In this document: in pieces, positions 1,872 through 60,086 of the stretch | Layout: every line of letters starts with the position of its first letter | How positions within the stretch are numbered: the stretch's first letter is position 1 | DNA from: a virus | Reading direction: 5' to 3' (one strand) | Length of the DNA stretch: 64,000 bases | IMG/VR virus record: IMGVR_UViG_3300009081_000012 | Location: 1 to 64,000 of that record | The notes under the pieces: generated by a model | Seen by the model: only the letters and a program-made list of their open reading frames with translations | Told to the model about the DNA's origin: nothing | Databases searched by the model: none | Made by a program: the position numbers and the translations under genes

Positions 1872-1899
1872 TTGACAACCAGGAAATCGTGCTTATATT
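1872..1899 (+). promoter_or_regulatory. sigma70-like promoter
   Basis: TTGACA-16 nt-TATATT; same layout as five other promoters in the window. Confidence 0.7.
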
Positions 1900-1901
1900 A
1901 A

Positions 1902-2103
1902 CATTATACCGAAATAACTATAATGAACATTATACCGAAATAATAATCATTACACCGAAATAATAATGAACATTATACTGAAATAATCATTATACTGAAA
2001 TAATCATTATACCGAAATAATGACGAACATTATACCGAAATAATCATTATACCGAAATAATGATTGTTATACCGAAATAACTTTGAACATTATACCGAAA
2101 TAA
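1902..2103 (+). repeat. 10 direct repeats of CATTATACCGAAATAA (iteron/centromere-like)
   Basis: copies at about 1902, 1928, 1948, 1971, 1988, 2005, 2028, 2045, 2065 and 2088, separated by 1-10 nt linkers. Confidence 0.92.
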
Positions 2104-2115
2104 TTTGGAGGATGT

Positions 2116-3999: not shown

Positions 4000-4165
4000 G
4001 GTACAACTCCTTTCGCCTTTCGGCATCAAAAATAATAAATAATGAAACGTCGTGATATACCCATCATAGGGCATATATTACCAGACGCCATAACTATTAA
4101 CTATGACTAATAGCGACTATACGCTGTCATAGTTTACTTTGGGAGACATGGACCACCCACATCCC

Positions 4166-4270
4166 CCAGAACACCTGTCCCCAGACGACCCCAGAGCCAG
4201 AACCAGTATACCAGAACTATCTCCAGCACCTTCCAGAACACCTGTCCCCAGACGACCCAAGAACCAGAAC
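4166..4270. repeat. duplicated CCAGAACACCTGTCCCCAGACGACCC unit; third partial copy at ~6229-6258
   Basis: direct repeats read from the sequence. Confidence 0.7.
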
Positions 4271-4596
4271 TATTCGTCAACATCGACGATACAACAATCA
4301 TTATCAAGGTCGTTGTAGAAGGTGTTTAAAAGACTTAATCCGTCTGCCGGATTATGGTCTTCTGTTTCGATTTCATCTTCCTCAACTTCCCTGAGTTTAT
4401 CGAGGTCTTCTGTGTCGGGATGTACTTTGTTTTCTACAACATCCCTAATGCAACCTCTGGTATAATCATAATATACCAGAACAGAGACATAAAGCGGAAG
4501 TACGTCGTTTTCTGCGACTAACTCAACTCCAGCCTCTGTTCTGATAGTCAATTGTCTACCCACCCGTTTTGTTGTTATTCCTTGGATGGGTTTCAT
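4270..4596 (-). CDS. hypothetical protein, acidic C-terminus
   Basis: 108-aa ORF directly after the upstream gene. Confidence 0.65.
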   Translation of the reverse strand: MKPIQGITTKRVGRQLTIRTEAGVELVAENDVLPLYVSVLVYYDYTRGCIRDVVENKVHPDTEDLDKLREVEEDEIETEDHNPADGLSLLNTFYNDLDNDCCIVDVDE

Positions 4597-4597
4597 G

Positions 4598-6154
4598 TCA
4601 GCACGCTTCCCATTGTGTTAACTGAGAACCTGGAGCTACTACAGCTTTACAGATATACTGTTTTGCTCCGTTGGCTTTGGCGTTGTCGTCTCCTTCCATT
4701 ACGTAGACGATTTTGGCGCCACCGCGTGCCATGATGGCGGTCTTGGTATACTGACCGTTGCCATCTAATTTGCCGGGATTTTGGGGCAGAACCAGTCGAC
4801 ACATCTCAACGCCGTCATTGTTGATAAACAGCTTATATGTCGGCAGTGCCTTGAACTTCCCGATGTACCCTATCAGACCGTTCGTAGTGGGTGCTTTAAC
4901 CCATCTGCCATTATGGAAGAAATTCATGGCAACTACGACCTGTTTCTCCTGCTCTGTTAACGCAATGGTGTTCTGCGCGACCAGTTCAGGATTTGAGAAT
5001 GCCTTGTCTGAATTGGTTAACTGCCCACAGGCAAAGATAGCATGGAAGCATTTTGTATAAACGCCTCTTGCTATGTCGCTGGTCTGTTGTGCTGATAACC
5101 CTGTTTTTGGCAGAGTTACCTTTACTCCAGTATGCTGGTCTGCCGTCATGGTTGAGAATGTTGCCTGAGCCATGGGTATGGGTGCAGGTTGAGGAGTGGC
5201 GACAGCTATCGGTTGAGGAGGTGCCATGGTAGCTTTGGCGAATTCAACCATACCACCAGAGCCAGCATAATTCTCATCGAAGTCATCGTCAGTTGCGGTG
5301 GCAAATTCACCATAGATGCCAGGCTCGTTGTCGAACCCGTCGTCCCAGCCATCATCTGCGAACTGAACAGGAGCATTCATAGAAGTTGTTGCCGAAGCCA
5401 TGGCGGGTGCGACAGCTGTTTGAACCGGTGCTGAGACTGTTTGTACCGGTACCTGGATAGGAGGAGCTTCAGCTGTCAGAGACGGAGCAATTGAGACAAC
5501 GGCCATCTTTGGTAAAGATGTCCATCTGATGTCGTTGTCTTCAGCCCCTGAAGCGAAGTGCATGTACGCTCTGAATGTACTCAGCTTCAGTTCGAGTGTA
5601 CTTTCCGTGGGCTTATACCAAACCCACAAACCTTCATCGAACATCCGCTTCTGAGTGTCAAAGAAGTCTCCTTCTTTTGCACCCTGAGCCAGCTCGTTCA
5701 TCTGCTCCCGGATGAATTCACAACTTCCGGGTTCAAGGGCATAATCCCTCGCTATCTCGAACGCCATCACTTTTGCTGAAGCTGAAACATCTTCTTCAGA
5801 CAGTTCCGGGTCATAAAGATGCAACGCCTCATGAATGATTGAGACGTACATATTATGCCAGAAGAGCGCGTTGATAGAAATCCCCTGCATCTCTGTTTCG
5901 TCTATGATTTTGTCATATGACTTGCAGAAGGTGTGCATGAGATTGATGACTACAGCCCCGCTGTCAGGGGCGCAGTTCGCCAATTCACCCTTCGGAGCTG
6001 TGAGGCTGAACACCACCAGTTTTATCGGACAGGAGCGTTCCGTTCTTCTGGCCATCTCCTGGAAAATGGTGTCCATGTTTCTGATTGCTTTGGTACCACC
6101 GACTAAGCTGGCACCGATAACCGCGGTTTCATTGTTCGTTAGACTATAAATCAT
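4598..6154 (-). CDS. large protein with HExxH metallopeptidase-like N-domain, A/P/D-rich linker and unknown C-domain
   Basis: IIHEALHL motif; start at MIYSL from the GAAAGGAG SD. Confidence 0.65.
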   Translation of the reverse strand: MIYSLTNNETAVIGASLVGGTKAIRNMDTIFQEMARRTERSCPIKLVVFSLTAPKGELANCAPDSGAVVINLMHTFCKSYDKIIDETEMQGISINALFWHNMYVSIIHEALHLYDPELSEEDVSASAKVMAFEIARDYALEPGSCEFIREQMNELAQGAKEGDFFDTQKRMFDEGLWVWYKPTESTLELKLSTFRAYMHFASGAEDNDIRWTSLPKMAVVSIAPSLTAEAPPIQVPVQTVSAPVQTAVAPAMASATTSMNAPVQFADDGWDDGFDNEPGIYGEFATATDDDFDENYAGSGGMVEFAKATMAPPQPIAVATPQPAPIPMAQATFSTMTADQHTGVKVTLPKTGLSAQQTSDIARGVYTKCFHAIFACGQLTNSDKAFSNPELVAQNTIALTEQEKQVVVAMNFFHNGRWVKAPTTNGLIGYIGKFKALPTYKLFINNDGVEMCRLVLPQNPGKLDGNGQYTKTAIMARGGAKIVYVMEGDDNAKANGAKQYICKAVVAPGSQLTQWEAC

Positions 6155-6169
6155 AATAAATCTCCTTTC

Positions 6170-6790
6170 GGGGTAAATACCCCAGTAGCGACGCGTAATT
6201 GCGTCTGTTTCAATTAAACTCTCAAAAAACCAGTCCCCAGACGAACCCAGAACCAGTTCTTCGAGAGTTACTAAATGGTGGTACATCCACCATCAAAAAA
6301 ACGGTAAAACGAAAAAGCGAACCCCGGTAGACTGTGGGAACTGCTGTACGGGGCTCTGGTAGGAACGGTGTCCGAAAAGCCGGAGGCTTACTGGAGCGAC
6401 GAAGTTGCGGAAGTAAGCCGGAGGCGCCAAGCGAACCGGCGACTGTGTAGAGAGCGGTTTGCTGGTATCTGCTTCTCGGTAAGCTGTAGGTTGGTCGAGC
6501 CCGACCTTCAGGTCGTTGGCGAGAGCAGGCTGAGCGGTTTGCTGTTTAAACCGCGAAGAGCTGTAAAATCTTAAAGACGCCCACGCCTGCTCCCGGTTGT
6601 TTGGGAGCGGGCGGGGGCATCCTGTTAGAACAAGAAACAGTTTGATGAGCGAAGATTGATGGATAGGCGGCGCGCTAGCGCCGCCGCACTGGGTCGCGTT
6701 ATCCACGAAGTGGCATCGGAAGCATTGTAGTAGCCCCCAGCACTGTAAATGTAAAATATGATTTTGTGACATTGCATTTTGCACCCCGCT
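6170..6790. other. GC-rich non-coding hairpin field (structured RNA or ssDNA element)
   Basis: at least 9 hairpins, e.g. GGCTTACT..AGTAAGCC, CGCCTGCTCCC..GGGAGCGGGCG, GGCGGCGC-GCTA-GCGCCGCC, CCAC-GAA-GTGG. Confidence 0.6.
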
Positions 6791-6811
6791 AAACTGTCTC
6801 TTGTCATTACA

Positions 6812-7165
6812 TCAGTATCTGACGACATGTACCACCAGGTTCTTACTGTTAGCGATGGCAATCATGTTAGCTGTACCACGACTTTGACCATCCCAGAAAG
6901 CAACTAAGCCGTCAGCGATTTTAGCCATATCCTCATTACGTATATAGCCAGCACTTTTCTTATATTTGTTCCAGTCTGCTGGCATCTTGATAACAGGAAT
7001 ACCCATTTCACTGGCGTATCTCAGAGCTAATGTGTCAGCTCCGCGCGCCATACCAGAAATAATTACCAATTCATTCTTTGGAATATTCTGGAATAAATAA
7101 TCAAGACGTTCTTTCATAAGAGGATAATTACTAAAATCTCTTCCACCAGCTACTATGATTTTCAC
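6812..7165 (-). CDS. SLOG family protein (YspA/DUF2493-like)
   Basis: IIVAGGRDF, IISGMARGAD, AGYIRNEDM, AFWDGQSRGT motifs. Confidence 0.85.
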   Translation of the reverse strand: MKIIVAGGRDFSNYPLMKERLDYLFQNIPKNELVIISGMARGADTLALRYASEMGIPVIKMPADWNKYKKSAGYIRNEDMAKIADGLVAFWDGQSRGTANMIAIANSKNLVVHVVRY

Positions 7166-7202
7166 TAAATCACCTCCCTTCATATGAAATCAATAATTTA
7201 AT

Positions 7203-7679
7203 TCAAAATGGAATATCATCATCAACGAAACCGTTAAGTACACCAGGAGTATAAGGTTCCGGAGATTTGGCTACAGGAGCAACAGGTGCAAAGACATTAC
7301 GCTGTCTAAAGAACTCTTCTGCCCCTTTACGCACAAACAAGTCAAGTCCTCTTTGTTGAAACAGATGAAACATAGCTATTCTCTGTTCGCGGTTTATTAT
7401 AGGTTCCAGTCTTTTCATTTCTTCAGTGGCATACTGCCACATAAACCATATACCATCGTCTTCAGCAACGATTACATTTAACGGGGGTAGTACTTCAGCC
7501 AAAGAAAACTTGAAGTTTGAGGTATCACCATAATCATCATTTTTTGTGAAAGCAACATCTTTCTTTTCTAAGAGCTCCAATAATTTAAGAGCATCTTCTT
7601 TTTCCATCACAATATCTATATCACTGTTTTCTGTGATGGGTCCATAAACACGGCTTCCAGTTAACAAAATTTTACTCAT
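7203..7679 (-). CDS. minimal nucleotidyltransferase (Pol-beta fold) with SSB-like DDDIPF tail
   Basis: LTGSRVYG...SDIDIV (GS...DxD); C-terminus DDDIPF. Confidence 0.7.
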   Translation of the reverse strand: MSKILLTGSRVYGPITENSDIDIVMEKEDALKLLELLEKKDVAFTKNDDYGDTSNFKFSLAEVLPPLNVIVAEDDGIWFMWQYATEEMKRLEPIINREQRIAMFHLFQQRGLDLFVRKGAEEFFRQRNVFAPVAPVAKSPEPYTPGVLNGFVDDDIPF

Positions 7680-7707
7680 AATAATTTCTCCTTTTTAGTT
7701 TTATTGT

Positions 7708-8148
7708 TTAAACATGTTTCCAACATACTGGACCAAACCCACGTTCTACTGATTTGTCATCAGTCAAATGATGTCCACAACGTCCGCAGAAATCATTGTG
7801 TGTAACCCTGACTATTGATAAATGTTCATATATACCAAGAGCCACACCAAGTAACCAAACAAACACAAACCACTCTTTATCAAATTGAGCAAACTTAGAG
7901 TTTTTGGTGGTTACTAATGCAAAATGGTTGTGGTCAGGAACATATCCTACATAAAGCCACCTAGTTTTTGGAAGTTCTTCGGCGTTGATGCTTACAAACC
8001 ACATTTTTTTATTGTTTTTTGATGAGCTTATTACTCTATATACCATTTTGAAATCATATTCAGTAGAAAACATGGTTATTGATGCCTTACCTGCAAAAAT
8101 AAAACGTTTAATTTCTTCCTTGTTCATACATTTTCTTGTATTAGGCAT
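7708..8148 (-). CDS. DUF6011-like zinc-finger phage protein
   Basis: CGRCGHHLTDDKSVERGFGPVC C-terminal motif. Confidence 0.75.
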   Translation of the reverse strand: MPNTRKCMNKEEIKRFIFAGKASITMFSTEYDFKMVYRVISSSKNNKKMWFVSINAEELPKTRWLYVGYVPDHNHFALVTTKNSKFAQFDKEWFVFVWLLGVALGIYEHLSIVRVTHNDFCGRCGHHLTDDKSVERGFGPVCWKHV

Positions 8149-8175
8149 TATAAATCACCTCCTTTCATGTGAATG

Positions 8176-8619
8176 TTATTTTTCCAATGATGTCATTTTT
8201 ACACATCTGCTTGGACATTTCTTATTTTGGCATTCGAAGTCAATATCAAGGCAACTGAGCTCTCCACCTGTCCACTCTCCACAGTCCGGGCAGTAATACT
8301 CTTCATGCTCTTCGTACCAGTCTATGAAGTCCAGATTAACGGAGAAATTAGCATCAACCAGTTCCATATCCTCCTCTGATATCCAAGCAACTTTGTTGTC
8401 TACGACATTCTTTCCACCCTGTGTTAAGGGCACGTTCTCTCCAGAGACCAGCAACAGTACAGAAAATTCTCCTCCTGAACTGCGCTCTATTAGGAGAACC
8501 TCACGATTAGGATAATTCTCACGCCAGCTTCTCTCAAAGTGTCGCCTGTCTTTCTTATTTTTTGGAGCGGGCGGAAGAATACGAGCCCGACAACCAACAG
8601 TAAGACGTTTCTTTTCCAT
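8176..8619 (-). CDS. hypothetical protein with C-terminal Zn ribbon
   Basis: CPDCG...CQNKKC; GGAGG SD. Confidence 0.6.
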   Translation of the reverse strand: MEKKRLTVGCRARILPPAPKNKKDRRHFERSWRENYPNREVLLIERSSGGEFSVLLLVSGENVPLTQGGKNVVDNKVAWISEEDMELVDANFSVNLDFIDWYEEHEEYYCPDCGEWTGGELSCLDIDFECQNKKCPSRCVKMTSLEK

Positions 8620-8638
8620 AACAATTCCTCCTTCTTTC

Positions 8639-9064
8639 TTATTTTAATAATTCTCTGACATCCATTAAAATAATTCCCAGATGATTTGCCCCGGTGCCGT
8701 TACAGACACCCCAGAACCTGTCGTTCCAGTAATTACCTTCAATCAGAACAGCATCGCCTGTCTTTATAAGTAATTCACGCAGACCGGTATTTCTTTCGAA
8801 TTTATCAAGAACAATCTCACACATTATTTTTATCCTTACACTGTTCCAATCTTCCCGAAGCTTGAGTGTTTTGCCAAGCTTTTTTGATTGTGGGCCGTTC
8901 AATGCCACGAACTTTAGTCTATCATTCAAGTCCATGCTTTTGGCGGCTTGATAAGCACCCTCTGAACACTGGTACAGCAACCCTTCATATACAACTGGGG
9001 CTGGAGTGTAGAAGTTGCTTAAAAATGAATAATAGTTTTTGAATGAGCTTATAATATCCGACAT
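8639..9064 (-). CDS. NADAR family protein (ADP-ribosyl/N-glycoside hydrolase, YbiA-like)
   Basis: FLSNFY, EGAYQAAK, LREDWNSVR, LIEGNYWNDRFWGV, GANHLGIILM. Confidence 0.9.
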   Translation of the reverse strand: MSDIISSFKNYYSFLSNFYTPAPVVYEGLLYQCSEGAYQAAKSMDLNDRLKFVALNGPQSKKLGKTLKLREDWNSVRIKIMCEIVLDKFERNTGLRELLIKTGDAVLIEGNYWNDRFWGVCNGTGANHLGIILMDVRELLK

Positions 9065-9070
9065 TGATAA

Positions 9071-9445
9071 TCACCTCCTTTCTGTATTCACTGTTACTTC
9101 ACCAGTGAAATCGTTACGCAACCAGTGACAAGTTTTCTTAATTTCATTAACAGCTGAAAATGGACGTTTACCATGCAGGATTGCAATCCATTTTGGAATT
9201 CTTGCACTGTCCACTCTGTAGGAGTAGTCAACACCATCAATAGTTAACATAATCATTCCATCACTTGAGAACCCACTGTAAAATAGCTTAACTTTGTTTT
9301 TGTATTTGATAAGTAATTCACGTCCAGCACAAAGAGGACAGTGATAAGCATCGTGTTCGTTATAGATATAATGCTCTTCTTTATCATTTTTCTCAACAAA
9401 TTCCACCAATTCTTTAAGCACTCTAAGCTCATCCATATTCATCAT
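9071..9445 (-). CDS. hypothetical protein
   Basis: ORF with AAGGAG SD. Confidence 0.55.
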   Translation of the reverse strand: MMNMDELRVLKELVEFVEKNDKEEHYIYNEHDAYHCPLCAGRELLIKYKNKVKLFYSGFSSDGMIMLTIDGVDYSYRVDSARIPKWIAILHGKRPFSAVNEIKKTCHWLRNDFTGEVTVNTERR

Positions 9446-9525
9446 AGTGGCATCTCCTTTCATAAATGTAAAAAGACACCATCATTGGGCAGAATGAGAG
9501 GGTGTCTGTTTGGTTTGCTGCTCCG

Positions 9526-9882
9526 CTAAACAATTTCCCATATTTCAGCAGTGACATAATTAATTCGTACACGTTTGCCAGTATCACGAAATAAGCCTGA
9601 TGCTTTAGCTGCTGCGGCACTTTCCTCATTCTCCTCCCAGGTTTTGACGATGATTTCGTTTGGAAGTATGAACGCTTCAGGAATGTTAACAGTGAGAACG
9701 CTATAGGGCATTCCGGCATCCTCACCTTCAGCACACGTAAGTTCAATCTGAAGCCTGTTTCCCTGAGCGTAGCGATTGGTTTCTATTACAACTAATTCAT
9801 CGCCGATTTTGAATGTTTTACCTTCGATTTTTGCTGCATCAACATCGAAGCCCTCTGCCGGAATTCGTTTTCTTCTTTTCAT
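9526..9882 (-). CDS. DUF4313-like phage protein
   Basis: RYAQGNRLQIEL..PYSVLTVNIP..GLFRDTGKRV pattern. Confidence 0.6.
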   Translation of the reverse strand: MKRRKRIPAEGFDVDAAKIEGKTFKIGDELVVIETNRYAQGNRLQIELTCAEGEDAGMPYSVLTVNIPEAFILPNEIIVKTWEENEESAAAAKASGLFRDTGKRVRINYVTAEIWEIV

Positions 9883-9928
9883 TAGTAGTTTCTCCTTATC
9901 TCAGTAGTTTCTTCTTTGACTAATCTGG

Positions 9929-10369
9929 TTATATGTAATAGATTAATCCTTTGAAATTATCACACCTTTTTTCTTCAAAATCATGAATATCCAAATCAAA
10001 TACTATACTAAGGGTAGAAAGTATAGCATTTAGAGTATCTATTGTAGCATTGCAACACATAATACAATCATCATGAAAATATAACGGATTTTCTGGAAAA
10101 CCGTTTCTTCTCTTAACTCTTATTTCTTTTATATCATCGTTGTAAATAATTTTAAACCTCCAGCCCCTAACAAAACAGTTATATTCATTAATATCTGCGT
10201 AACCATTTCTCACTAGCCGATAGCATATCTGTGAAACTGTGTTCTTCTTAACGTTGGGAATGATTTGTTTTACCTCTGTAAATATCATATCCAAAGTTTT
10301 TGGATGTAGTGTAAAACAACTCTTAACAATCTGTGAAATGTTCATGTGTTTAATGTTGATGATATTCAT
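9929..10369 (-). CDS. winged-helix-like hypothetical protein
   Basis: KKNTVSQICYRLVRNGYA resembles a wHTH recognition helix and wing. Confidence 0.5.
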   Translation of the reverse strand: MNIINIKHMNISQIVKSCFTLHPKTLDMIFTEVKQIIPNVKKNTVSQICYRLVRNGYADINEYNCFVRGWRFKIIYNDDIKEIRVKRRNGFPENPLYFHDDCIMCCNATIDTLNAILSTLSIVFDLDIHDFEEKRCDNFKGLIYYI

Positions 10370-10408
10370 GTAAATCCTCCTTTTGTTGTTTGGTTGTTGT
10401 TGTTAAAA

Positions 10409-10471
10409 TCTTCTCAACCCATCAGTTAGACTGATAGGTTCAGAAGACGCCAGGAAGCCGAGCCTCCTGGC
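10409..10471 (-). ncRNA. double-hairpin intergenic RNA element, copy A
   Basis: GCCAGGAGGC-TCG-GCTTCCTGGC, G, TCTTCT-G-AACCTATCAG-loop-CTGATGGGTT-G-AGAAGA, TTTT. Confidence 0.7.
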
Positions 10472-10480
10472 TTGTGTGTA

Positions 10481-10720
10481 CTAATCCCAGAAAATAAGTA
10501 TCTGAGATTTGATAGATACGTGGACTTTTCTACCACGTGCTATCCCAAGGTAGAAATTATGGACCGGGTGTTTCTTCAATCCATACGTACCCGTTTTTGT
10601 TTTCAACAAACCACCTTTTTTATCGTCAACGACAAAGATGGCTGCGCCGTGTTCTGTGGATAATCCTTCCGGCGTGATATGCAGTTTACGAACCTTTTTT
10701 GTTTTAACAGCCTTGTTCAT
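10481..10720 (-). CDS. small basic hypothetical protein
   Basis: 79-aa ORF, AAGGAGG SD. Confidence 0.6.
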   Translation of the reverse strand: MNKAVKTKKVRKLHITPEGLSTEHGAAIFVVDDKKGGLLKTKTGTYGLKKHPVHNFYLGIARGRKVHVSIKSQILIFWD

Positions 10721-10968
10721 AATTACCTCCTTATGTTTTTTGGTTTAATATTTATATATAATGCAGTCCTCAAGGACCGAAAATTTCCAGTATGAATCCT
10801 GTGCCTTTACGGATGTTCTCCGAATTGGTGTATCTTGTCGCAATATGTAATGCTCATACGAGACTGTCTGCCATGCCCAACTCATGGTAACACAATAGCT
10901 TCTACCATAGACAACCTCCTTTCCTGTGGAGCTAACTGTAAATAAAGAACTGCTTTTTGAGGAAGCAT

Positions 10969-11040
10969 AACCTATTAAGCCTACGAACTTTCGCTCGCTG
11001 GCTTAATAGATTAGCCACTACGTCCTCAACATAGTGGCTA
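10969..11040 (-). ncRNA. double-hairpin intergenic RNA element, copy B
   Basis: TAGCCACTATGT..ACGTAGTGGCTA, then ATCTATTAAGCC..GAAA..GGCTTAATAGGT. Confidence 0.65.
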
Positions 11041-11048
11041 TATTGTAA

Positions 11049-11231
11049 TTAATGAACACTTACACCTGTATTCTCCAGCTCCCATGAGGCTGATGCTAAA
11101 GAAAGCATCTTGCCATTAGGCATCTTAACCTTGTATTTGTCATCAAGATTAAGTATGGTTGCCTGTACTACTTCGGGGGCTGAAGTTGACAGAAACACAT
11201 TACCAGTTAATGTATTCACTACTTCGTACAT
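11049..11231 (-). CDS. hypothetical protein
   Basis: 60-aa ORF, GGAGG SD. Confidence 0.6.
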   Translation of the reverse strand: MYEVVNTLTGNVFLSTSAPEVVQATILNLDDKYKVKMPNGKMLSLASASWELENTGVSVH

Positions 11232-11234
11232 GTT

Positions 11235-12119
11235 TTATATACCTCCTTTGTTTTCTGTATTATTAACCACCAAATAATCTTTTACAACAACACCATTTTC
11301 AACATTACCACGTTCATGATCAGGAATGAAAAACAAACCATGTCTACCTTTTATTCCAAACAAAGGATTTTCTTCTGTATAATATCTAAAATGTCCAGCT
11401 ACAGTATGAAAAGCCCTTGTTGTTTCAGTTACGTTATTATTAAGTTTTTTGTTCTTGTATTTTTTCACTACATTAGTTATTACCAGTGTTTTGTACGTGA
11501 ATGGTGGACGTTTATTTTTATTAGTAATTCTTGTGAGTAAATGAGAAGGGCGATTGTCAATAGTTGTTATGTTCTTACAATTAAGATAAAGTAATATTAA
11601 GTATGCTGAATGTACTGAATTAACAGCGTGTTCAAACAGGACGTTATCAACGTCATAAGGATAGTTAGAATTGTTCTTATCTATGTTCAAACTTTCTTTA
11701 ACAATTTCATCATTCATAATAACTGTACCGTGATATGGATTGAATGTCCATCCTGTATTTGGGCATTGTGCCCCATGTATACTTAATACGCCATCCTTCA
11801 AGTTTAATAATATACCCTTCTTTAACGACCTTGTTTCGTCTGTATAAAAATCAATCCACATGGTTGGATAGGGAAGTCTAATATACTTTTGTAATGTAAT
11901 GAATGCCTGTATGTGTTTGTTTGATTTATTAAGTACACCATCTATCAAAGAGAACATATGTTTCATTATATCTTTCGTATATACACCCATGTGGTATTTA
12001 ACTGCCTTTTCCACTAACGACATGCGATATACTAACATATCACGATATTCCTGATTAATTGGTTCGTTGTTGTTCATAAAATATTTTTTTATTGTGTTAA
12101 TAAGCTCGTGTGCAAACAT
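11235..12119 (-). CDS. conserved phage hypothetical protein (HxVxGHFR...HERG C-terminal motif)
   Basis: RAFHTVAGHFRYY...FIPDHERG. Confidence 0.65.
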   Translation of the reverse strand: MFAHELINTIKKYFMNNNEPINQEYRDMLVYRMSLVEKAVKYHMGVYTKDIMKHMFSLIDGVLNKSNKHIQAFITLQKYIRLPYPTMWIDFYTDETRSLKKGILLNLKDGVLSIHGAQCPNTGWTFNPYHGTVIMNDEIVKESLNIDKNNSNYPYDVDNVLFEHAVNSVHSAYLILLYLNCKNITTIDNRPSHLLTRITNKNKRPPFTYKTLVITNVVKKYKNKKLNNNVTETTRAFHTVAGHFRYYTEENPLFGIKGRHGLFFIPDHERGNVENGVVVKDYLVVNNTENKGGI

Positions 12120-12169
12120 AGTTCACCTCCTGTAATTTGATTGTTTTTAAGTTATGTGTATGATATTTA

Positions 12170-12246
12170 AACTATTAAGCCCAAGAACACAGGCTCATAG
12201 GCTTAAGAGATTAGCCAGGATACCTAACACGCAGATATCCTGGCTA
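12170..12246 (-). ncRNA. double-hairpin intergenic RNA element, copy C
   Basis: TAGCCAGGATATCT..AGGTATCCTGGCTA, then ATCTCTTAAGCCTA..TGGGCTTAATAG. Confidence 0.65.
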
Positions 12247-12250
12247 TGGT

Positions 12251-12382
12251 TTATCGATGTTTTTTGGATGGACTGAATATGAGTATTACAACTCCTATAA
12301 CCCAGAACAATGCGCCAATTATTAAATCCAAAAGCCACAATCCAACGAATACGAGAAATATAATCCAAAGTATGTGTAGCAT
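12251..12382 (-). CDS. small membrane protein (43 aa, below ORF track cutoff)
   Basis: MLHILWIIFLVFVGLWLLDLIIGALFWVIGVVILIFSPSKKHR; GGAGGTG SD. Confidence 0.55.
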   Translation of the reverse strand: MLHILWIIFLVFVGLWLLDLIIGALFWVIGVVILIFSPSKKHR

Positions 12383-12604
12383 TTATATTCCACCTCCCAT
12401 AGTGTTGTTGGTACTACAATTGTTTGTTTTTGGTTTATCCTCCGCCGTGAATAAATTTGCTATATATACAGCCAATACGATGAGAAATACCCACCAAAAG
12501 TTTATCAACAGAAATCCCATACCAAACAGTATGCCAAATACAGCTGTTGTCAATAACAAGAATTTTACACAAGGCACTAACATAATAATCACCTCCTTTA
12601 CCAA
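12383..12604 (-). CDS. small membrane protein
   Basis: two hydrophobic segments. Confidence 0.55.
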   Translation of the reverse strand: MVKEVIIMLVPCVKFLLLTTAVFGILFGMGFLLINFWWVFLIVLAVYIANLFTAEDKPKTNNCSTNNTMGGGI

Positions 12605-12653
12605 TTTTGTAATTTATGTTTGTTGGTCCAATATACCAAAAAATCACGCTCTA

Positions 12654-12941
12654 TTACTTCTTGACGTTGTTGTCCACCTTCTTCTTCCGGTTCAGCATCT
12701 CACTAAAGCCTATGCTGACACGGCAGTAATAACATAGTCTGCGTTTGTGTTCTTTGTCCCACTCTAAATCCTTCTCGAATGAGACAATACCACATTTCTC
12801 ACAATGAGCCTTTTCGGGCTCGGCTAAACATTCATCACATTCACCATATACCAAACTGACGTGCTTCTCGCAATAAAACGAACCATCAAACTTACTGCGT
12901 GCTGGTAGTGTCGGTATAGGTGGTTTGTTATAGAACTCCAT
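12654..12941 (-). CDS. Cys-rich zinc-finger hypothetical protein
   Basis: CEKH, CDEC, CEKC, CYYC pairs. Confidence 0.6.
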   Translation of the reverse strand: MEFYNKPPIPTLPARSKFDGSFYCEKHVSLVYGECDECLAEPEKAHCEKCGIVSFEKDLEWDKEHKRRLCYYCRVSIGFSEMLNRKKKVDNNVKK

Positions 12942-12956
12942 TTATACCACCTCCTT

Positions 12957-13238
12957 TTATACTTTTTCACCAGTTTTTTGAAAATACAAATCCTCCATAT
13001 CCATATAGCCTTGATAGGTACCTGCTAATATTTGCCTATCCTTTTCCTCTTGCCCAGCAAATCTATTTGAAATCATTTGTCTACCAGTCACAGGCTCTGT
13101 ATAACGACATAGAGGATATCGTGGACAAGCCCACCAATAATAATTCTTTTGGCTCCACTTAATTACTAACTTAGTGTCCAGCTGGTCACGGCTCTTACAA
13201 TCAGGACACATGACGTTTTTAGCATCTTTGTGTGCCAT
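12957..13238 (-). CDS. topoisomerase C4-type zinc-finger protein
   Basis: CPDC...WACPRYPLCRYTEP. Confidence 0.65.
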   Translation of the reverse strand: MAHKDAKNVMCPDCKSRDQLDTKLVIKWSQKNYYWWACPRYPLCRYTEPVTGRQMISNRFAGQEEKDRQILAGTYQGYMDMEDLYFQKTGEKV

Positions 13239-13239
13239 T

Positions 13240-13407
13240 CTATACCACCTCCTTTGTGTTTGGAAGTATCACACGGTCATCACACTCTATTCGTATTAGT
13301 TTACAATCATCAGAATACTTATACTTTTCAATTGTATAACCCAATGAACAAGTGAAGAACTCTCCTCCCAATAATGGACAATCAGAACAATATTTTCTTT
13401 TAGGCAT
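13240..13407 (-). CDS. small Cys-rich protein (55 aa, below track cutoff)
   Basis: MPKRKYCSDCPLL...; AAGGAGG SD. Confidence 0.55.
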   Translation of the reverse strand: MPKRKYCSDCPLLGGEFFTCSLGYTIEKYKYSDDCKLIRIECDDRVILPNTKEVV

Positions 13408-13449
13408 TACTATTTACCTCCTTTCATTGATTGTTGTTATTTGAAAAAA

Positions 13450-13516
13450 TCTTCTAAACCTACCATAACTGATAGGCTTAGAAGACGCCACTGTTTCTGT
13501 TGCCAAGCACAGTGAC
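13450..13516 (-). ncRNA. double-hairpin intergenic RNA element, copy D
   Basis: GTCACTGT..ACAGTGGC, G, TCTTCTAAGCCTATCA..TGGTAGGTTTAGAAGA, TTTTTT. Confidence 0.7.
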
Positions 13517-13566
13517 CAAGCTTCTCCGCGCCTTTACGCGGTAGCGGGCTCGATTAGATCACGTTC

Positions 13567-13866
13567 CTAACTGAAGATGAGATCTTCTTCACCTTCTATA
13601 GGAAACGCCACCCAATTGAACAGGAGGGCCAAGACAGACGCATCTTTGGCCAGTCTGTAAATAGACTGTCCTTGGATGTTCTCTCCATCCCCAAGCCTCC
13701 GACCCTTTTCGATGCTACGAGCCATCGATGTAAGGACCATAGCGGCCTGTTGCCTGGATATGGTTATCGAGGAGTTTATTTCCTCAATACCACACTCATG
13801 GCACGCCTCGGCCAAGAGACCGCAGTACTTGATCTCCTGACCGCCGATTGTTTCGTACATCCCCAT
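13567..13866 (-). CDS. hypothetical protein
   Basis: 99-aa ORF, GGAGGTG SD. Confidence 0.6.
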   Translation of the reverse strand: MGMYETIGGQEIKYCGLLAEACHECGIEEINSSITISRQQAAMVLTSMARSIEKGRRLGDGENIQGQSIYRLAKDASVLALLFNWVAFPIEGEEDLIFS

Positions 13867-13937
13867 ATATCACCTCCTTTGTGATGGTTATGGGGTCGCT
13901 TATCTGGGGTCAAGCGACTGACCCATACGGCAACATA

Positions 13938-14141
13938 CTACCTGTTGTATGTTCTATTGAATGACGCGTCAGACATACACAGATAATGTATGCCTTCCAG
14001 TAATCCGATAATTCCAGGAATGAACGTCCAACAGAATACCAAATATAGTAATCCCTGGAAACACCTGCCAAGATAAAACTTATGAACGCCTATTCCACCC
14101 AAAATTAATGCAAAAATACCAGCTACGAGTTTGTTCTTCAT
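13938..14141 (-). CDS. TM2-domain (NINE) membrane protein
   Basis: KNKLVAGIFALILGGIGVHKFYLG...GLLYLVFCWTFIP. Confidence 0.88.
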   Translation of the reverse strand: MKNKLVAGIFALILGGIGVHKFYLGRCFQGLLYLVFCWTFIPGIIGLLEGIHYLCMSDASFNRTYNR

Positions 14142-14179
14142 GATAATACTCCTTTCTATTTGATTGTTGTTGTTTAAAA

Positions 14180-14240
14180 TCCTCTCAGCCTACCAGTATT
14201 GATAGGCTCAGAGGACGCCAGGAAGTCGAAGCCTCCTGGC
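14180..14240 (-). ncRNA. double-hairpin intergenic RNA element, copy E
   Basis: GCCAGGAGG-CTTCGA-CTTCCTGGC, G, TCCTCT-G-AGCCTATCA..TGGTAGGCT-G-AGAGGA, TTTT. Confidence 0.7.
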
Positions 14241-14254
14241 TGGTAAAAACACAA

Positions 14255-14482
14255 CTAACGTCTAATAGACACCCTACCGTCTGTTATTTCAACGGCGTCC
14301 GGGTCTCTCCAGTAAGCAGTAGCACGAAGGCTACTATTAGCTTCACGTTCAACTATTATTACTTTTGTTAATGGGTCCATTAATATCTCCCCCATCAGCT
14401 TTCCTTCATTTGGAAGACCACTAAATTGATTGTTGACAAACCCTTTCTCAATACCCTCTTTTACGAAATCTTCTCTAGTCAT
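14255..14482 (-). CDS. hypothetical protein
   Basis: 75-aa ORF, AAGGAG SD. Confidence 0.6.
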   Translation of the reverse strand: MTREDFVKEGIEKGFVNNQFSGLPNEGKLMGEILMDPLTKVIIVEREANSSLRATAYWRDPDAVEITDGRVSIRR

Positions 14483-14510
14483 TTGTTTGCTCCTTTCTTG
14501 ATTGTTGTTA

Positions 14511-14682
14511 TTGGCAAGTCCATACTTGAGGATTGTCCAGAGAGAGTAACGGTACGGGCAATGCGGTTTCTCTGACCTCTCACCATTTTTGGTAGCCTGT
14601 GCCTCCTACTAGTCCCAGAGGTCTAATTTGCTACTCGGCGTATATGGATATATTTTGGGGCTTTCACCCATAGGCTTGCCAA
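14511..14682 (-). ncRNA. candidate multi-stem structured RNA (~170 nt)
   Basis: closing TTGGCAAG/CTTGCCAA; TCCATAT/GTATGGA; GAGTAGC/GTTACTC; GACCTCT/AGAGGTC; CAGAGA/TCTCTG. Confidence 0.5.
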
Positions 14683-14694
14683 ACTTGTTTTTGG

Positions 14695-15264
14695 TTAAAT
14701 TGTTGTAATACGTCTGTTTGGTCTTGGCTTATTATTGTTTATTCGGCCGAGCAGGAAGCCGCCGAATAGCACTGCTAATATAATTACACCTAACCCAACA
14801 AACATCTTCCATTCTTCTGGGTTGTTGCTAGGATATATGAAGCGTGTATTCTGAACAACATAGAACATATCCACTACTTCGAATAGTTCTACACCATCAA
14901 CACCTCTTTTGAAGTCAACTACAACTTCAATGGTGGTTCTCTCCCCATACTTGAATGGTTTGGTGACATCAGTAAATCTAAAGATATCGCCTACATTATT
15001 TACAAACTCAACGTTATAAGAGATATACCCTGCTGGAGCACCGTCTATATCTACTACGCTAACGACACTCTTTACCGTAACATCCATGTAAAGTGATGTA
15101 TGTTTGTCTGATGCAGCAGTTAACGATGTCCATAACAGTATTAACATAATAATAACTACTACTATTATAAGCTTGTTGTTGCTCTGCTTTTCAATAACAT
15201 ACTCTTTTGCCAAGTTGTTCTGTTCCATCGCAAGTGCGATGAGTTCCTTAGTTGATAGATACAT
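14695..15264 (-). CDS. membrane-anchored hypothetical protein
   Basis: N- and C-terminal TM segments. Confidence 0.6.
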   Translation of the reverse strand: MYLSTKELIALAMEQNNLAKEYVIEKQSNNKLIIVVVIIMLILLWTSLTAASDKHTSLYMDVTVKSVVSVVDIDGAPAGYISYNVEFVNNVGDIFRFTDVTKPFKYGERTTIEVVVDFKRGVDGVELFEVVDMFYVVQNTRFIYPSNNPEEWKMFVGLGVIILAVLFGGFLLGRINNNKPRPNRRITTI

Positions 15265-15312
15265 TGTACACCTCTTTCCTGCGTATTGGATGCGCAGCCC
15301 CCGTATGTTTAG

Positions 15313-15534
15313 TTATTGTATTTTCTGCACCTTCCAATTACGTAAGCCTACCCAGCACATAGACAGGTTAAAAGTGAATAGTGCTGCCTGTGGATACGCC
15401 TTTGTTGCGATGTTTATAACAATGAACCCTATATTAGATATCACCCAAAGGTAAAAACACAAACGATTGCCTTTAGCATTAACATAGGTGCCTATTACCG
15501 CAACTACAGTAAACAACCAACCTATATATTCCAT
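15313..15534 (-). CDS. small PnuC-like membrane protein
   Basis: GWLFTVVAVIGTYVNA..CFYLWVISN..QAALF pattern. Confidence 0.55.
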   Translation of the reverse strand: MEYIGWLFTVVAVIGTYVNAKGNRLCFYLWVISNIGFIVINIATKAYPQAALFTFNLSMCWVGLRNWKVQKIQ

Positions 15535-15545
15535 GATAACCTCCT

Positions 15546-15755
15546 TTATTTTATTAAAAGATTTGGCGAGCAAAATTGACCGTTTGGTCCTTTAATATAT
15601 AAACCAGACGCATTTACCTGATTAGCAAGAAACCGCTCATGTTCAAGAACAGTAAGTAATTCTAATGAACTGTTACCCACTGTAGAAGATGTGAGTGGTT
15701 TATATGCACAGATGTGCTGTCTTGCGAATAGCCATACAAACGCGTAGTTGTTCAT
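15546..15755 (-). CDS. hypothetical protein
   Basis: 69-aa ORF, GGGAG SD. Confidence 0.55.
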   Translation of the reverse strand: MNNYAFVWLFARQHICAYKPLTSSTVGNSSLELLTVLEHERFLANQVNASGLYIKGPNGQFCSPNLLIK

Positions 15756-15793
15756 TATGGTATCTCCCTTTGTTAAATGGTTATTTTGTTACT

Positions 15794-15852
15794 GACGTTT
15801 CGGCCCTCCATAGGCCTTATTCATCAGGGATGCGGTAACAGCACCCGACGCC
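15794..15852 (-). ncRNA. hammerhead ribozyme, type III, with a 4-nt core insertion
   Basis: GGCGUC^ GGGUGC-loop-GCAUCC CUGAUGA AUAA GGCC-loop-GGCC GAAA CGUC: all core nucleotides and three stems present. Confidence 0.8.
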
Positions 15853-15881
15853 AAGCAGTTTAACGTCATGCTTAGGACATT
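15851..15881 (-). ncRNA. small H-type pseudoknot abutting the hammerhead
   Basis: AAUGUC/GACGUU stem; loop CUAAGCA pairs with downstream UGCUUGG. Confidence 0.5.
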
Positions 15882-15889
15882 TATTGTAT

Positions 15890-16321
15890 TTATTGGTGGT
15901 GAACACAACCACACATATCAGGCTCATCAGGAACCCATCCATAAAGCTTATATGGTATGAATGTTGCGTTATCCTTTAAGGTGTTCCTAAATCTATCAGG
16001 GATAATTCCTTGATACCATAAGTTATTGGTGGTTATTGTTCTACCATCATTGTAATGAATGATGAACTTTCTTCCACCATGTCCTTTTAAGCGATTACTA
16101 TCATCGCCAAGTCTATAATGAGCGCCATCCACTATAACTATGGCTGGGTCACCACTCAAAAATAGCACGATGTGTTGTGTCCAGAAAGCACACGTATGGC
16201 AGTGTGTATCTAACAAGTCTCCATCTTCCCTCTCTAAATCTGAGTTGTCGAATGGTTTGCCACATACTACGCACGCCACCTGCTCAAAAACCTGCTCAAA
16301 AATTTGTAATAAATTGTTCAT
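15890..16321 (-). CDS. conserved phage hypothetical protein with Zn finger
   Basis: CVVC..CHTCAFW..GHGGRKFII..TNNLWYQGIIP. Confidence 0.7.
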   Translation of the reverse strand: MNNLLQIFEQVFEQVACVVCGKPFDNSDLEREDGDLLDTHCHTCAFWTQHIVLFLSGDPAIVIVDGAHYRLGDDSNRLKGHGGRKFIIHYNDGRTITTNNLWYQGIIPDRFRNTLKDNATFIPYKLYGWVPDEPDMCGCVHHQ

Positions 16322-16845
16322 AAAGACCTCCTTTGTTATTGTGTGGTTGTTGATTGTATCATTAAACTGTTGAACGAAATTCTTTTAGCACTTCGTAACA
16401 CAGTAGAAGTCGAACCAGGGTAGGGGGTATAAAAAATGTAAAGCGTTTACTCACCCTATCGAAGCCTCGGTCTCCTGCTCACACAAAATGGGGAGGTTTT
16501 GAGGCAGTCAACCATTATGTATAACATAGTGTAATAATAGTATAATGGTATATAGTATAATAACCTAACCATCATACCAGTATCCCGTTCTCCTACCAGT
16601 ATACCCTCCTCCAGTAACCCCTCTCTACCAGCATCCAATCCTACTAGCATCCCCATCTACCAGTTATGGTATCCCGTTGTCCTCCCCTCCCTATCCTCTC
16701 CTCTCTCTCTTTTCTTTATGTTTTTGTGTTACCATCGATATGCTGGAACAGAGAATACCAATACACTAGTATAGAATACCGTTATACCACTACACCGTGG
16801 TTGTTTCCGCCCGCCCGAAATTTTTAATTATTTTCTGTTAAAGTC

Positions 16846-16873
16846 TTGACAAAGTAGTTTTAGTGATTATATT
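16846..16873 (+). promoter_or_regulatory. sigma70-like promoter starting the rightward arm
   Basis: TTGACA-16-TATATT with TGAT before the -10. Confidence 0.7.
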
Positions 16874-16901
16874 GTTATTAACCAATAAAAGGAGAAATAT
16901 T

Positions 16902-17165
16902 ATGAGACCTCAAATAACTACTAAGGAAATAGATTCTACATTAAAACGGGTTGTAAACTGGTTAGACAAACGTATTAAAGAAAAGGGGTATGGTTCTTTC
17001 TCATCAATACATGAAATTAGAGGTGTTATAGATGAAGAAATTATAGAACTTAAAGACGCTATGCATGAAAAAGATTATGCGGCGATGGAACATGAATTGA
17101 AGGATGTAATAGTTGCTGGTATTTTTGGTTTAGCTTGTTTGAAGTCAGGGAAGATGGACTGGTAA
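16902..17165 (+). CDS. MazG-like nucleotide pyrophosphohydrolase
   Basis: IDEEIIELKDA...HELKDV (EExxE...ExxD). Confidence 0.6.
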   Translation: MRPQITTKEIDSTLKRVVNWLDKRIKEKGYGSFSSIHEIRGVIDEEIIELKDAMHEKDYAAMEHELKDVIVAGIFGLACLKSGKMDW

Positions 17166-28563: not shown

Positions 28564-28591
28564 TTGACAATTTCAAAAAAGTGCTTATTAT
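28564..28591 (+). promoter_or_regulatory. sigma70-like promoter of the glycosylation cluster
   Basis: TTGACA-16-TATTAT. Confidence 0.65.
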
Positions 28592-38990: not shown

Positions 38991-39805
38991 AAGTTTTTGT
39001 ATTAGGTCACAAAGGAATGCTAGGTAGGTATGTTTATACCTATTTGAAATCAAAAAACTATGATGTTGTAGGATTATCTCGTTCTGAAATAGATGCCTCA
39101 TGTATTTCCAGTGTCGAATTAAAATCTAAATTATTAGATGTAGATTTTAATGAAGGAGATGTGGTTATAAATTGTATAGGCATAATCAAAAGAAACGATG
39201 TTCCAAAAAAAGACTTCACTGCGGTTAACACTGTTTTTCCACACACACTTGCTTATGTTTGTGAACGTGTTGGAGCAGAACTTATACACGTTAGTACAGA
39301 TTGTGTTTATGATGGTCTTGAAGGAAATTATAATGAGAATCATGTACATACTGCAAAAGATTTGTATGGTATAAGTAAATCAGAAGGAGAAATAGGTAAT
39401 ATCACAATAATACGAACATCTCTTATTGGTGAGGAGCTTGATCAACAACGTTCTTTAATAGAATGGATTAAATCCAACAAAAACAACACAGTTTCTGGTT
39501 ATACTAATCATGTGTGGAACGGTATTACATGTTTACAGTTTGCCAAACTGTGTGATGAGATTATGGAAGAAGAACTTTTTTGGCGCGGAGTAAAACACAT
39601 TACATCTCCATCTAAAATAACCAAACACGATTTGGTTAAACTTGTATCAGAGATTTATGAATTAAATGTCACTGTTATTCCTCATGAAACTGAAACAAAA
39701 TGTGATAGGTCTTTATCCAGTGTTCGCGGAGAAATAGTGTTCAAGATTCCTGAGTTACGAGAACAACTAATAGAAATGAAATCTTTTACACTTGACAAAT
39801 ACTAA
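38987..39805 (+). CDS. NDP-4-keto-6-deoxysugar reductase (RmlD/WbvR-like)
   Basis: GHKGMLG, STDCVY, YGISK, IRTS. Confidence 0.88.
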   Translation: MKVFVLGHKGMLGRYVYTYLKSKNYDVVGLSRSEIDASCISSVELKSKLLDVDFNEGDVVINCIGIIKRNDVPKKDFTAVNTVFPHTLAYVCERVGAELIHVSTDCVYDGLEGNYNENHVHTAKDLYGISKSEGEIGNITIIRTSLIGEELDQQRSLIEWIKSNKNNTVSGYTNHVWNGITCLQFAKLCDEIMEEELFWRGVKHITSPSKITKHDLVKLVSEIYELNVTVIPHETETKCDRSLSSVRGEIVFKIPELREQLIEMKSFTLDKY

Positions 39806-39819
39806 AAAGGTATTATAAT
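39792..39819 (+). promoter_or_regulatory. sigma70-like promoter for dam
   Basis: TTGACA-16-TATAAT. Confidence 0.65.
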
Positions 39820-53414: not shown

Positions 53415-53442
53415 TTGACATAGAAAATAAAATGATTATATT
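53415..53442 (+). promoter_or_regulatory. sigma70-like promoter
   Basis: TTGACA-16-TATATT. Confidence 0.65.
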
Positions 53443-60058: not shown

Positions 60059-60086
60059 TTGACAAATAGTATTTAATGATTATTAT
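60059..60086 (+). promoter_or_regulatory. sigma70-like promoter
   Basis: TTGACA-16-TATTAT. Confidence 0.6.

Follow-up and report, generated by a model that had tools for sequence, protein, structure and literature searches.

What does a double-hairpin element do that recurs five times in the gaps between the small genes of an uncultured giant phage? The question is raised by the first 64 kb (hereafter, the window) of the 76,981-bp IMG/VR virus record IMGVR_UViG_3300009081_000012, in which a leftward block of genes extends from ~16.4 kb down to 6.8 kb, entirely on the minus strand, with ~25 open reading frames (ORFs) that are mostly small and carry strong GGAGG ribosome sites. Few proteins of this block, which from its gene content appears to be early, match any family. 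The record has a CheckV completeness of 28%, which puts the complete phage genome at roughly 275 kb. Many relatives of its large terminase, 57-73% identical, occur in records as long as 238 kb. The DNA sequencing runs containing the stretch come from freshwater sediment, soil and wetland sources, and no RNA run is listed among those that contain it.

A reading made from the sequence alone had described five copies of a double hairpin, each set between a stop codon and the ribosome site of the next gene, and our analysis confirmed this family in its positions, architecture and placement. Copies A1 (10404..10473), B1 (10966..11040), B2 (12166..12246), A2 (13445..13518) and A3 (14175..14242) are given here in plus-strand numbers and are all read on the minus strand, the coding (mRNA) strand of this block. 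They are ~70 nt long and 0.6-1.3 kb apart, and consist of two abutting hairpins: hairpin 1 with 9-14 bp, a junction of at most ~3 nt, and hairpin 2 with 17-19 bp. A covariance model built from the five copies scores them at 68-83 bits in the 77-kb record (A1 83, A3 79, B1 73, B2 and A2 68 each), while the rest of the record yields nothing above 11 bits, barring the copies' own reverse complements. Folded individually, the five copies reach free energies (dG) of -38 to -44 kcal/mol with z-scores of -7.4 to -9.2, and the plus strand folds 10-17 kcal/mol worse, because several of the pairs are G.U on the minus strand.

The copies fall into two subtypes, A1/A2/A3 with junction G and B1/B2 with junction UAA/AU, and share a hairpin 1 base (G.CA.../...UG.C) as well as the base and middle of hairpin 2 (UCU..U.A.CC.../...GG.U.A..AGA). 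In A1, hairpin 1 pairs GCCAGGAGGC with GCUUCCUGGC, and hairpin 2 is a 17-bp stem with a G.G mismatch, followed by UUUU. A2 differs in its hairpin 1 stem (CACUGU/ACAGUG) and has a perfect 17-bp hairpin 2 followed by UUUUUU; A3, again followed by UUUU, carries UCCUCU/AGAGGA, compensatory to the UCUUCU/AGAAGA of A1 and A2. B1 is built from UAGCCACUAUG.../...UAGUGGCUA (hairpin 1), a junction of approximately AU, and CUAUUAAGCC.../...GGCUUAAUAG with a GAAA-capped tip (hairpin 2), and B2 belongs to the same subtype. All five lie 4-48 nt downstream of a stop codon and upstream of an A/C-rich leader of 34-58 nt with a Shine-Dalgarno (SD) sequence. The leader behind A1 (10370..10403, minus strand) is unstructured with a GGAGG SD, and similar minus-strand leaders (AACAACAAUCAA...) are found behind A2 (13408-13444), A3 (14142-14174) and B2 (12120-12165), as well as at 14483-14520, at the end of a 212-nt spacer.

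Next, we asked whether the helices themselves have been maintained, using an alignment of seven copies from two phages: the five of the window and two from a related 189-kb record, G003. In this alignment 91.5% of cells pair, and both partners have changed in 16 of the 27 pairs; fitting the alignment to the model favours the structure, and the independent single-sequence folds agree with it. None of 500 shuffles reached any of the five covariation measures, and sliding the pairing partner by 1-3 columns lowered pairing to 33-45%. Double changes occur in 8 of the 10 pairs of hairpin 1, so that its covariation equals that of hairpin 2 in strength. The helices keep their geometry although loops, tails and the length of the junction differ between copies, and the invariant positions all lie in Watson-Crick pairs, including a box in the middle of hairpin 2, U(G/A)ANCC/GGNU(G/U)A, that is retained in both phages. 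A G.G mismatch in hairpin 2 is present in four of the seven. The covariation that had been pointed out from the sequence alone is thereby borne out.

Short assembled contigs of related strains provided a second view of the same helices. The 84-87% identical neighbouring proteins P0002 and P0003 are encoded on Logan and ENA contigs. In one related strain (run X7), ~6% of positions differ in the neighbouring gene. This strain has at least five stem substitutions in B1 and B2, and all those listed keep minus-strand pairing. In B1, 11020 A>G together with 11032 T>C converts A-U to G-C as a full compensatory pair, and 11021 C>T converts G.U to A-U; 11023 T>C in B1 and 12236 T>C in B2 each convert A-U to G.U on the minus strand, changes that would leave A.C on the plus strand. 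A further change, 10999 T>G, affects a position where the bases were mismatched already. Of the indels listed within the elements, most are in loops (10427, 10431 and 11028) and one is at the B1 junction (11013); a further indel, at 10474, sits just 5' of A1. These strain changes are the strongest single piece of evidence for selection on the minus-strand RNA. Collectively, these findings support the view that the elements act at the RNA level and, under selection for structure, punctuate a polycistronic block of small genes.

A sixth, collapsed copy had also been suggested at about 6565-6618, and this suggestion did not hold up. The minus strand there (6564..6620) has a G+C-rich 18-bp hairpin followed by GUCUUUAAGAUUUU, a 3' flank that resembles the base of hairpin 2 as if its middle had been deleted, and the model match is not significant (9.7 bits, E 0.85). 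Separately, the minus strand at 6500-6811 contains several very stable G+C hairpins, such as GGCGGCGCGCUAGCGCGCCGCC, with a total dG of approximately -123 kcal/mol over 312 nt, and the zone 4000-6800, behind the last small gene, has a G+C content of 0.43-0.48 vs. ~0.32 elsewhere.

We also searched for the element beyond this record. Model searches of 50 related phage records found it in one, G003 (terminase ~64% identical), and not in the other 49. The two G003 copies occupy the first spacers of that phage's own small-gene block, beside a repeat array, and show the same architecture with different stems and a junction of A or AC. Exact-pattern scans for A-type and B-type arms returned no matches in viral contigs and none in metagenome contigs, megablast of 9000-17000 against phage records gave no match, and a 294-aa neighbouring protein had no relatives in viral or metagenome contigs. 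No Rfam family matched the elements, whether at gathering thresholds on the whole window or at E up to 10 on 6000-17000. The sequence family is thus undescribed in Rfam and limited to a narrow lineage; as a kind of element, hairpins that punctuate the small-gene operons of phages are already well known. In G003 we additionally observed an identical ~60-nt cassette before two genes (L095 840-905 and 1450-1520, minus strand), in one case directly behind a double-hairpin copy, which consists of a hairpin GGCACAG...CUGUGCC, then CCTTATAATGATACATAGGAGATCATTATG, with a TATAAT box and an SD, and which resembles the promoter-early stem-loops (PeSLs) of T4-type phages.

What, then, would such an RNA do? 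The reading we favour, at a little short of even confidence and in keeping with the role proposed from the sequence alone, is an intercistronic processing or stability element in the mRNA. As the leftward block is transcribed, the element would fold directly downstream of a stop codon, its two hairpins abutting coaxially, and this pair would be the target of a double-strand-specific host endonuclease of the RNase III type and/or a block to 3' exonucleases. The operon would in this way be divided into separately stable messages, a hairpin-capped one upstream and a translatable one downstream, with the unstructured A/C-rich leader and strong SD letting ribosomes load on the next gene. The comparisons show the copies, their strand, conserved structure and intercistronic position, and their coincidence with cassette borders; we infer the cutting, the exonuclease protection and the acting enzyme alike. 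Since the same ~70 nt stand between unrelated genes, the elements would also provide patches of homology for the exchange of gene cassettes between related phages. The reading fits best because it accounts for selection on RNA helices, no conserved unpaired bases, placement behind stop codons, an unstructured leader and poor terminator features; that loops, junction and tails vary while helices are kept suits a reader of double-stranded RNA. REP (repetitive extragenic palindromic) hairpins stabilise upstream mRNA in E. coli, and RNase III sites punctuate the early mRNA of T7 and SP82 (Panganiban and Whiteley 1983, as cited in PMC4838370). Models for a phage-encoded RNase III (PF14622, PF00636) found none in the five phage records searched (G000, G003, G001, G002 and G004), so that a host enzyme would have to act.

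Several observations weigh against this reading. RNase III sites usually present approximately two turns (~20 bp) of helix with an internal loop, and cleavage leaves 5'-phosphate ends and a 2-nt 3' overhang. With its 17-19 bp, hairpin 2 by itself does not quite reach the length that the enzyme prefers, and the helix would reach ~28-31 bp only if hairpin 2 stacked on hairpin 1; moreover, the element has two separate hairpins vs. the single interrupted hairpin of the T7 sites. The hairpin 2 box, invariant across two phages, hints at a sequence-specific reader, whereas RNase III is only weakly sequence-specific. Finally, that the element is missing from 49 related records indicates that it is dispensable for the phage group.

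Among the alternatives, the one that fares best, and which we consider possible but unlikely, is that the elements are leaky intrinsic terminators or attenuators, in which hairpin 2 and a U run would stop part of the host polymerase and produce a step-down expression gradient. A2 passes a simple terminator scan (d'Aubenton-Carafa d = +10.8), A1 and A3 are at least followed by UUUU, and the stem-loops of the T4-type PeSLs do terminate (PMC2839356). However, A2 is the only one of the five copies with a positive score, with A1 at -13.7, A3 at -6.5, B1 at -30.9 and B2 at -29.5; the base of hairpin 2 is A/U-rich, and both G003 copies are without any U tract. Termination also leaves hairpin 1 without a role, in spite of its many double-sided changes. 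As a plain intrinsic terminator the element is therefore a poor fit, with some partial termination at the A copies being conceivable.

A different possibility, somewhat less probable again, is that the element is chiefly a linker repeat at the DNA level (PeSL- or REP-like), which would spread with gene cassettes and promote modular exchange, the RNA hairpin being a tolerated by-product. This idea draws on where related strains part from the window, again as seen in the short assembled contigs. In run X7, the contigs stop resembling the window at 10406, on the 3' edge of A1, and at 10948, which is 18 nt behind B1, and the gene at 14239-14504, between A3 and the leader upstream of A3, is replaced by 317 other letters, such that similarity is lost within ~20 nt of element edges (10406, 10948, and 14238 to 14505). 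In runs X5 and X8, isolated pieces, one of A2 (13474-13519) and one of the A1 leader (10367-10403, in X8), stand between unrelated flanks. The coincidence of elements with cassette borders is suggestive rather than conclusive, and we give it moderate support; confinement of the family to a narrow lineage fits a DNA linker as well. One further joint in run X7, from 13514 to 15852, which would have an element replacing a hammerhead candidate, was discounted, as its shorter side is 24 nt and both sites share GCCAAGCA and GACGCCA.

The strain substitutions nevertheless keep G.U pairs on the mRNA strand only, and the complement of the mRNA strand folds much less stably; together these show selection on RNA, which a pure DNA linker would not need. 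Nor do the elements carry an attached promoter. PeSLs join a strong sigma-70-like promoter to a terminating stem-loop (PMC2839356, PMC4122927), and a promoter scan found no promoter-like site in or behind any of our elements, which, since PeSLs are defined by that joined promoter, are not PeSLs. Elsewhere in the window, near-perfect TTGACA-16-TAT(A/T)AT promoters precede gene groups on the plus strand (39792-39819, 28564-28591, 53415-53442, 16846-16873 and 60059-60086), suggesting that much of the phage is probably transcribed by the main holoenzyme of the host.

We consider it doubtful that the element is an operator for a sequence-specific RNA-binding protein or nuclease, of phage or host, that would read U(G/A)ANCC/GGNU(G/U)A and the G.G mismatch, and perhaps the ..CA/UG.. 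base of hairpin 1. Such a reader would explain why the box positions do not change among the seven copies of the two phages although the pairs next to them covary, and why the G.G mismatch recurs in four of them; the invariance may, however, reflect recent common descent of the copies, and no candidate protein was found, with Pfam searches of the block's small proteins returning no RNA-binding or nuclease family. A more elaborate version, about equally improbable, has a dedicated lineage-specific RNA-processing or RNA-binding factor reading the UGANCC/GGNUGA box and the G.G mismatch, which together with the hammerhead candidate and other structured spacers would amount to an RNA-encoded segmentation of the operon independent of host RNase III.

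That the elements are a new self-cleaving ribozyme, or substrates of the nearby hammerhead candidate, we regard as highly improbable: the absence of an Rfam match would make any such ribozyme new, and the 7-mer UGGCGUC at the A1-A3 junctions equals that of the hammerhead site, but known self-cleaving ribozymes depend on conserved unpaired cores, here loops are unrelated and every invariant base is paired, the junction varies (G in the A copies, UAA/AU in the B copies, A or AC in G003), and known self-cleaving ribozyme models (hammerhead, twister, pistol, hatchet, HDV and others) did not match the elements even at E up to 10. The suggestion of an undescribed ribozyme is thus not sustained. The hammerhead candidate itself, which lies outside the family, is of type III (15792..15854, minus strand), with a CUGAUGA...GAAA core and a GUC site, four additional nucleotides (AUAA) that separate CUGAUGA from stem II, and a score of 23.6 bits against a cut-off of 48.5, and is accordingly treated as a candidate only. 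Its stem I is a closed hairpin, so that it cannot act on the elements in trans. A contig of run X8 has 15796-15852 with unrelated sequence on either side, and these flanks re-create a perfect 6-bp stem III (CGGCGU/ACGCCG), which suggests a second, functional-looking hammerhead copy elsewhere.

The sequence-only reading had drawn a connection from UGGCGUC, which is present, as it had stated, in three copies and in the 7 nt ending at the candidate's GUC. The connection to the hammerhead is not supported: GACGCCA has six hits on that strand of the window vs. approximately four expected (an estimate), which is chance level, two of the six belong neither to elements nor to the hammerhead, and the X8 hammerhead copy has CGGCGUC in place of UGGCGUC. 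A CRISPR-repeat mimic (Racr), a retron and a toxin-antitoxin RNA were also considered and, judged from general knowledge, dropped, given 17-bp near-perfect palindromes without arrays or partner genes.

Other features of the block's spacers and flanks were noted alongside the elements. The 212-nt intergenic spacer at 14483-14694 (minus strand) has a multi-stem fold (dG -46.6), ends in a AAUAACAACAAUCAA leader, and had no Rfam match at E up to 10. Behind B1, at 10886-10910 (minus strand), an ATG preceded by a good SD (GGAGG) starts a frame of only 8 codons (MVEAIVLP); this frame overlaps the start of a 46-aa ORF (10745-10885) through ATGA, and may represent either a mini-ORF for coupling or a gene that has been frameshifted. 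Upstream of the operon, 16510-16800 (minus strand) is a repeat-rich non-coding zone with CTGGTA/GGTA-rich purine repeats. A second such zone flanking the leftward block, at 1879-2104 (plus strand), contains approximately ten CATTATACCGAAATAAT repeats, and a comparable array, of TACTAGATAAGATAA, adjoins the small-gene block of G003.

If the processing and stability reading is true, an uncultured giant phage of sediment and soil would manage a long small-gene message by the strategy of T7 and SP82 in a new two-hairpin form. The elements would also add a case for intergenic regulatory repeats driving the modular evolution of phage accessory regions, and would offer a compact, portable ~70-nt insulator candidate for synthetic operons. 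The family opens no new class of RNA, and several systems already described resemble it.

Of these, the RNase III sites of T7 (R0.3-R1.3) and SP82/SPO1, whose architecture we take from general knowledge and from the citations in PMC4838370, are likewise hairpins of conserved structure that recur between the genes of a polycistronic small-gene block, on the mRNA strand, with variable loops and with stable helices in which the new RNA ends would terminate. They differ in having one hairpin with an internal loop where our elements have two abutting, nearly perfect ones, and the two share no sequence similarity. REP elements and bacterial interspersed mosaic elements (BIMEs), described here from general knowledge, are also dispersed intergenic palindromic repeats inside operons that fold in the mRNA. 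They protect upstream RNA from 3' exonucleases, and are repeats of enterobacterial chromosomes, associated with RAYT transposases and with a GTAG motif, with sequences unrelated to those of our family. The put RNA of HK022, again from general knowledge, resembles the element in its length of ~70 nt, its two stem-loops one nucleotide apart and its cis action in the nascent transcript, but put occurs once behind each early promoter, ahead of terminators and with conserved bulges, whereas our elements occur five to an operon with nearly perfect stems and no promoter nearby. The PeSLs, finally, are like them in recurring as intergenic cassettes among the ORFan genes of a plastic region, in containing a stable stem-loop, and in bordering the places where close relatives differ by an insertion, deletion or replacement. 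A PeSL has a strong sigma-70-like promoter and a single terminating stem-loop with a G/C tract, in contrast to elements that have no promoter at or behind them and two hairpins with mostly poor terminator scores.

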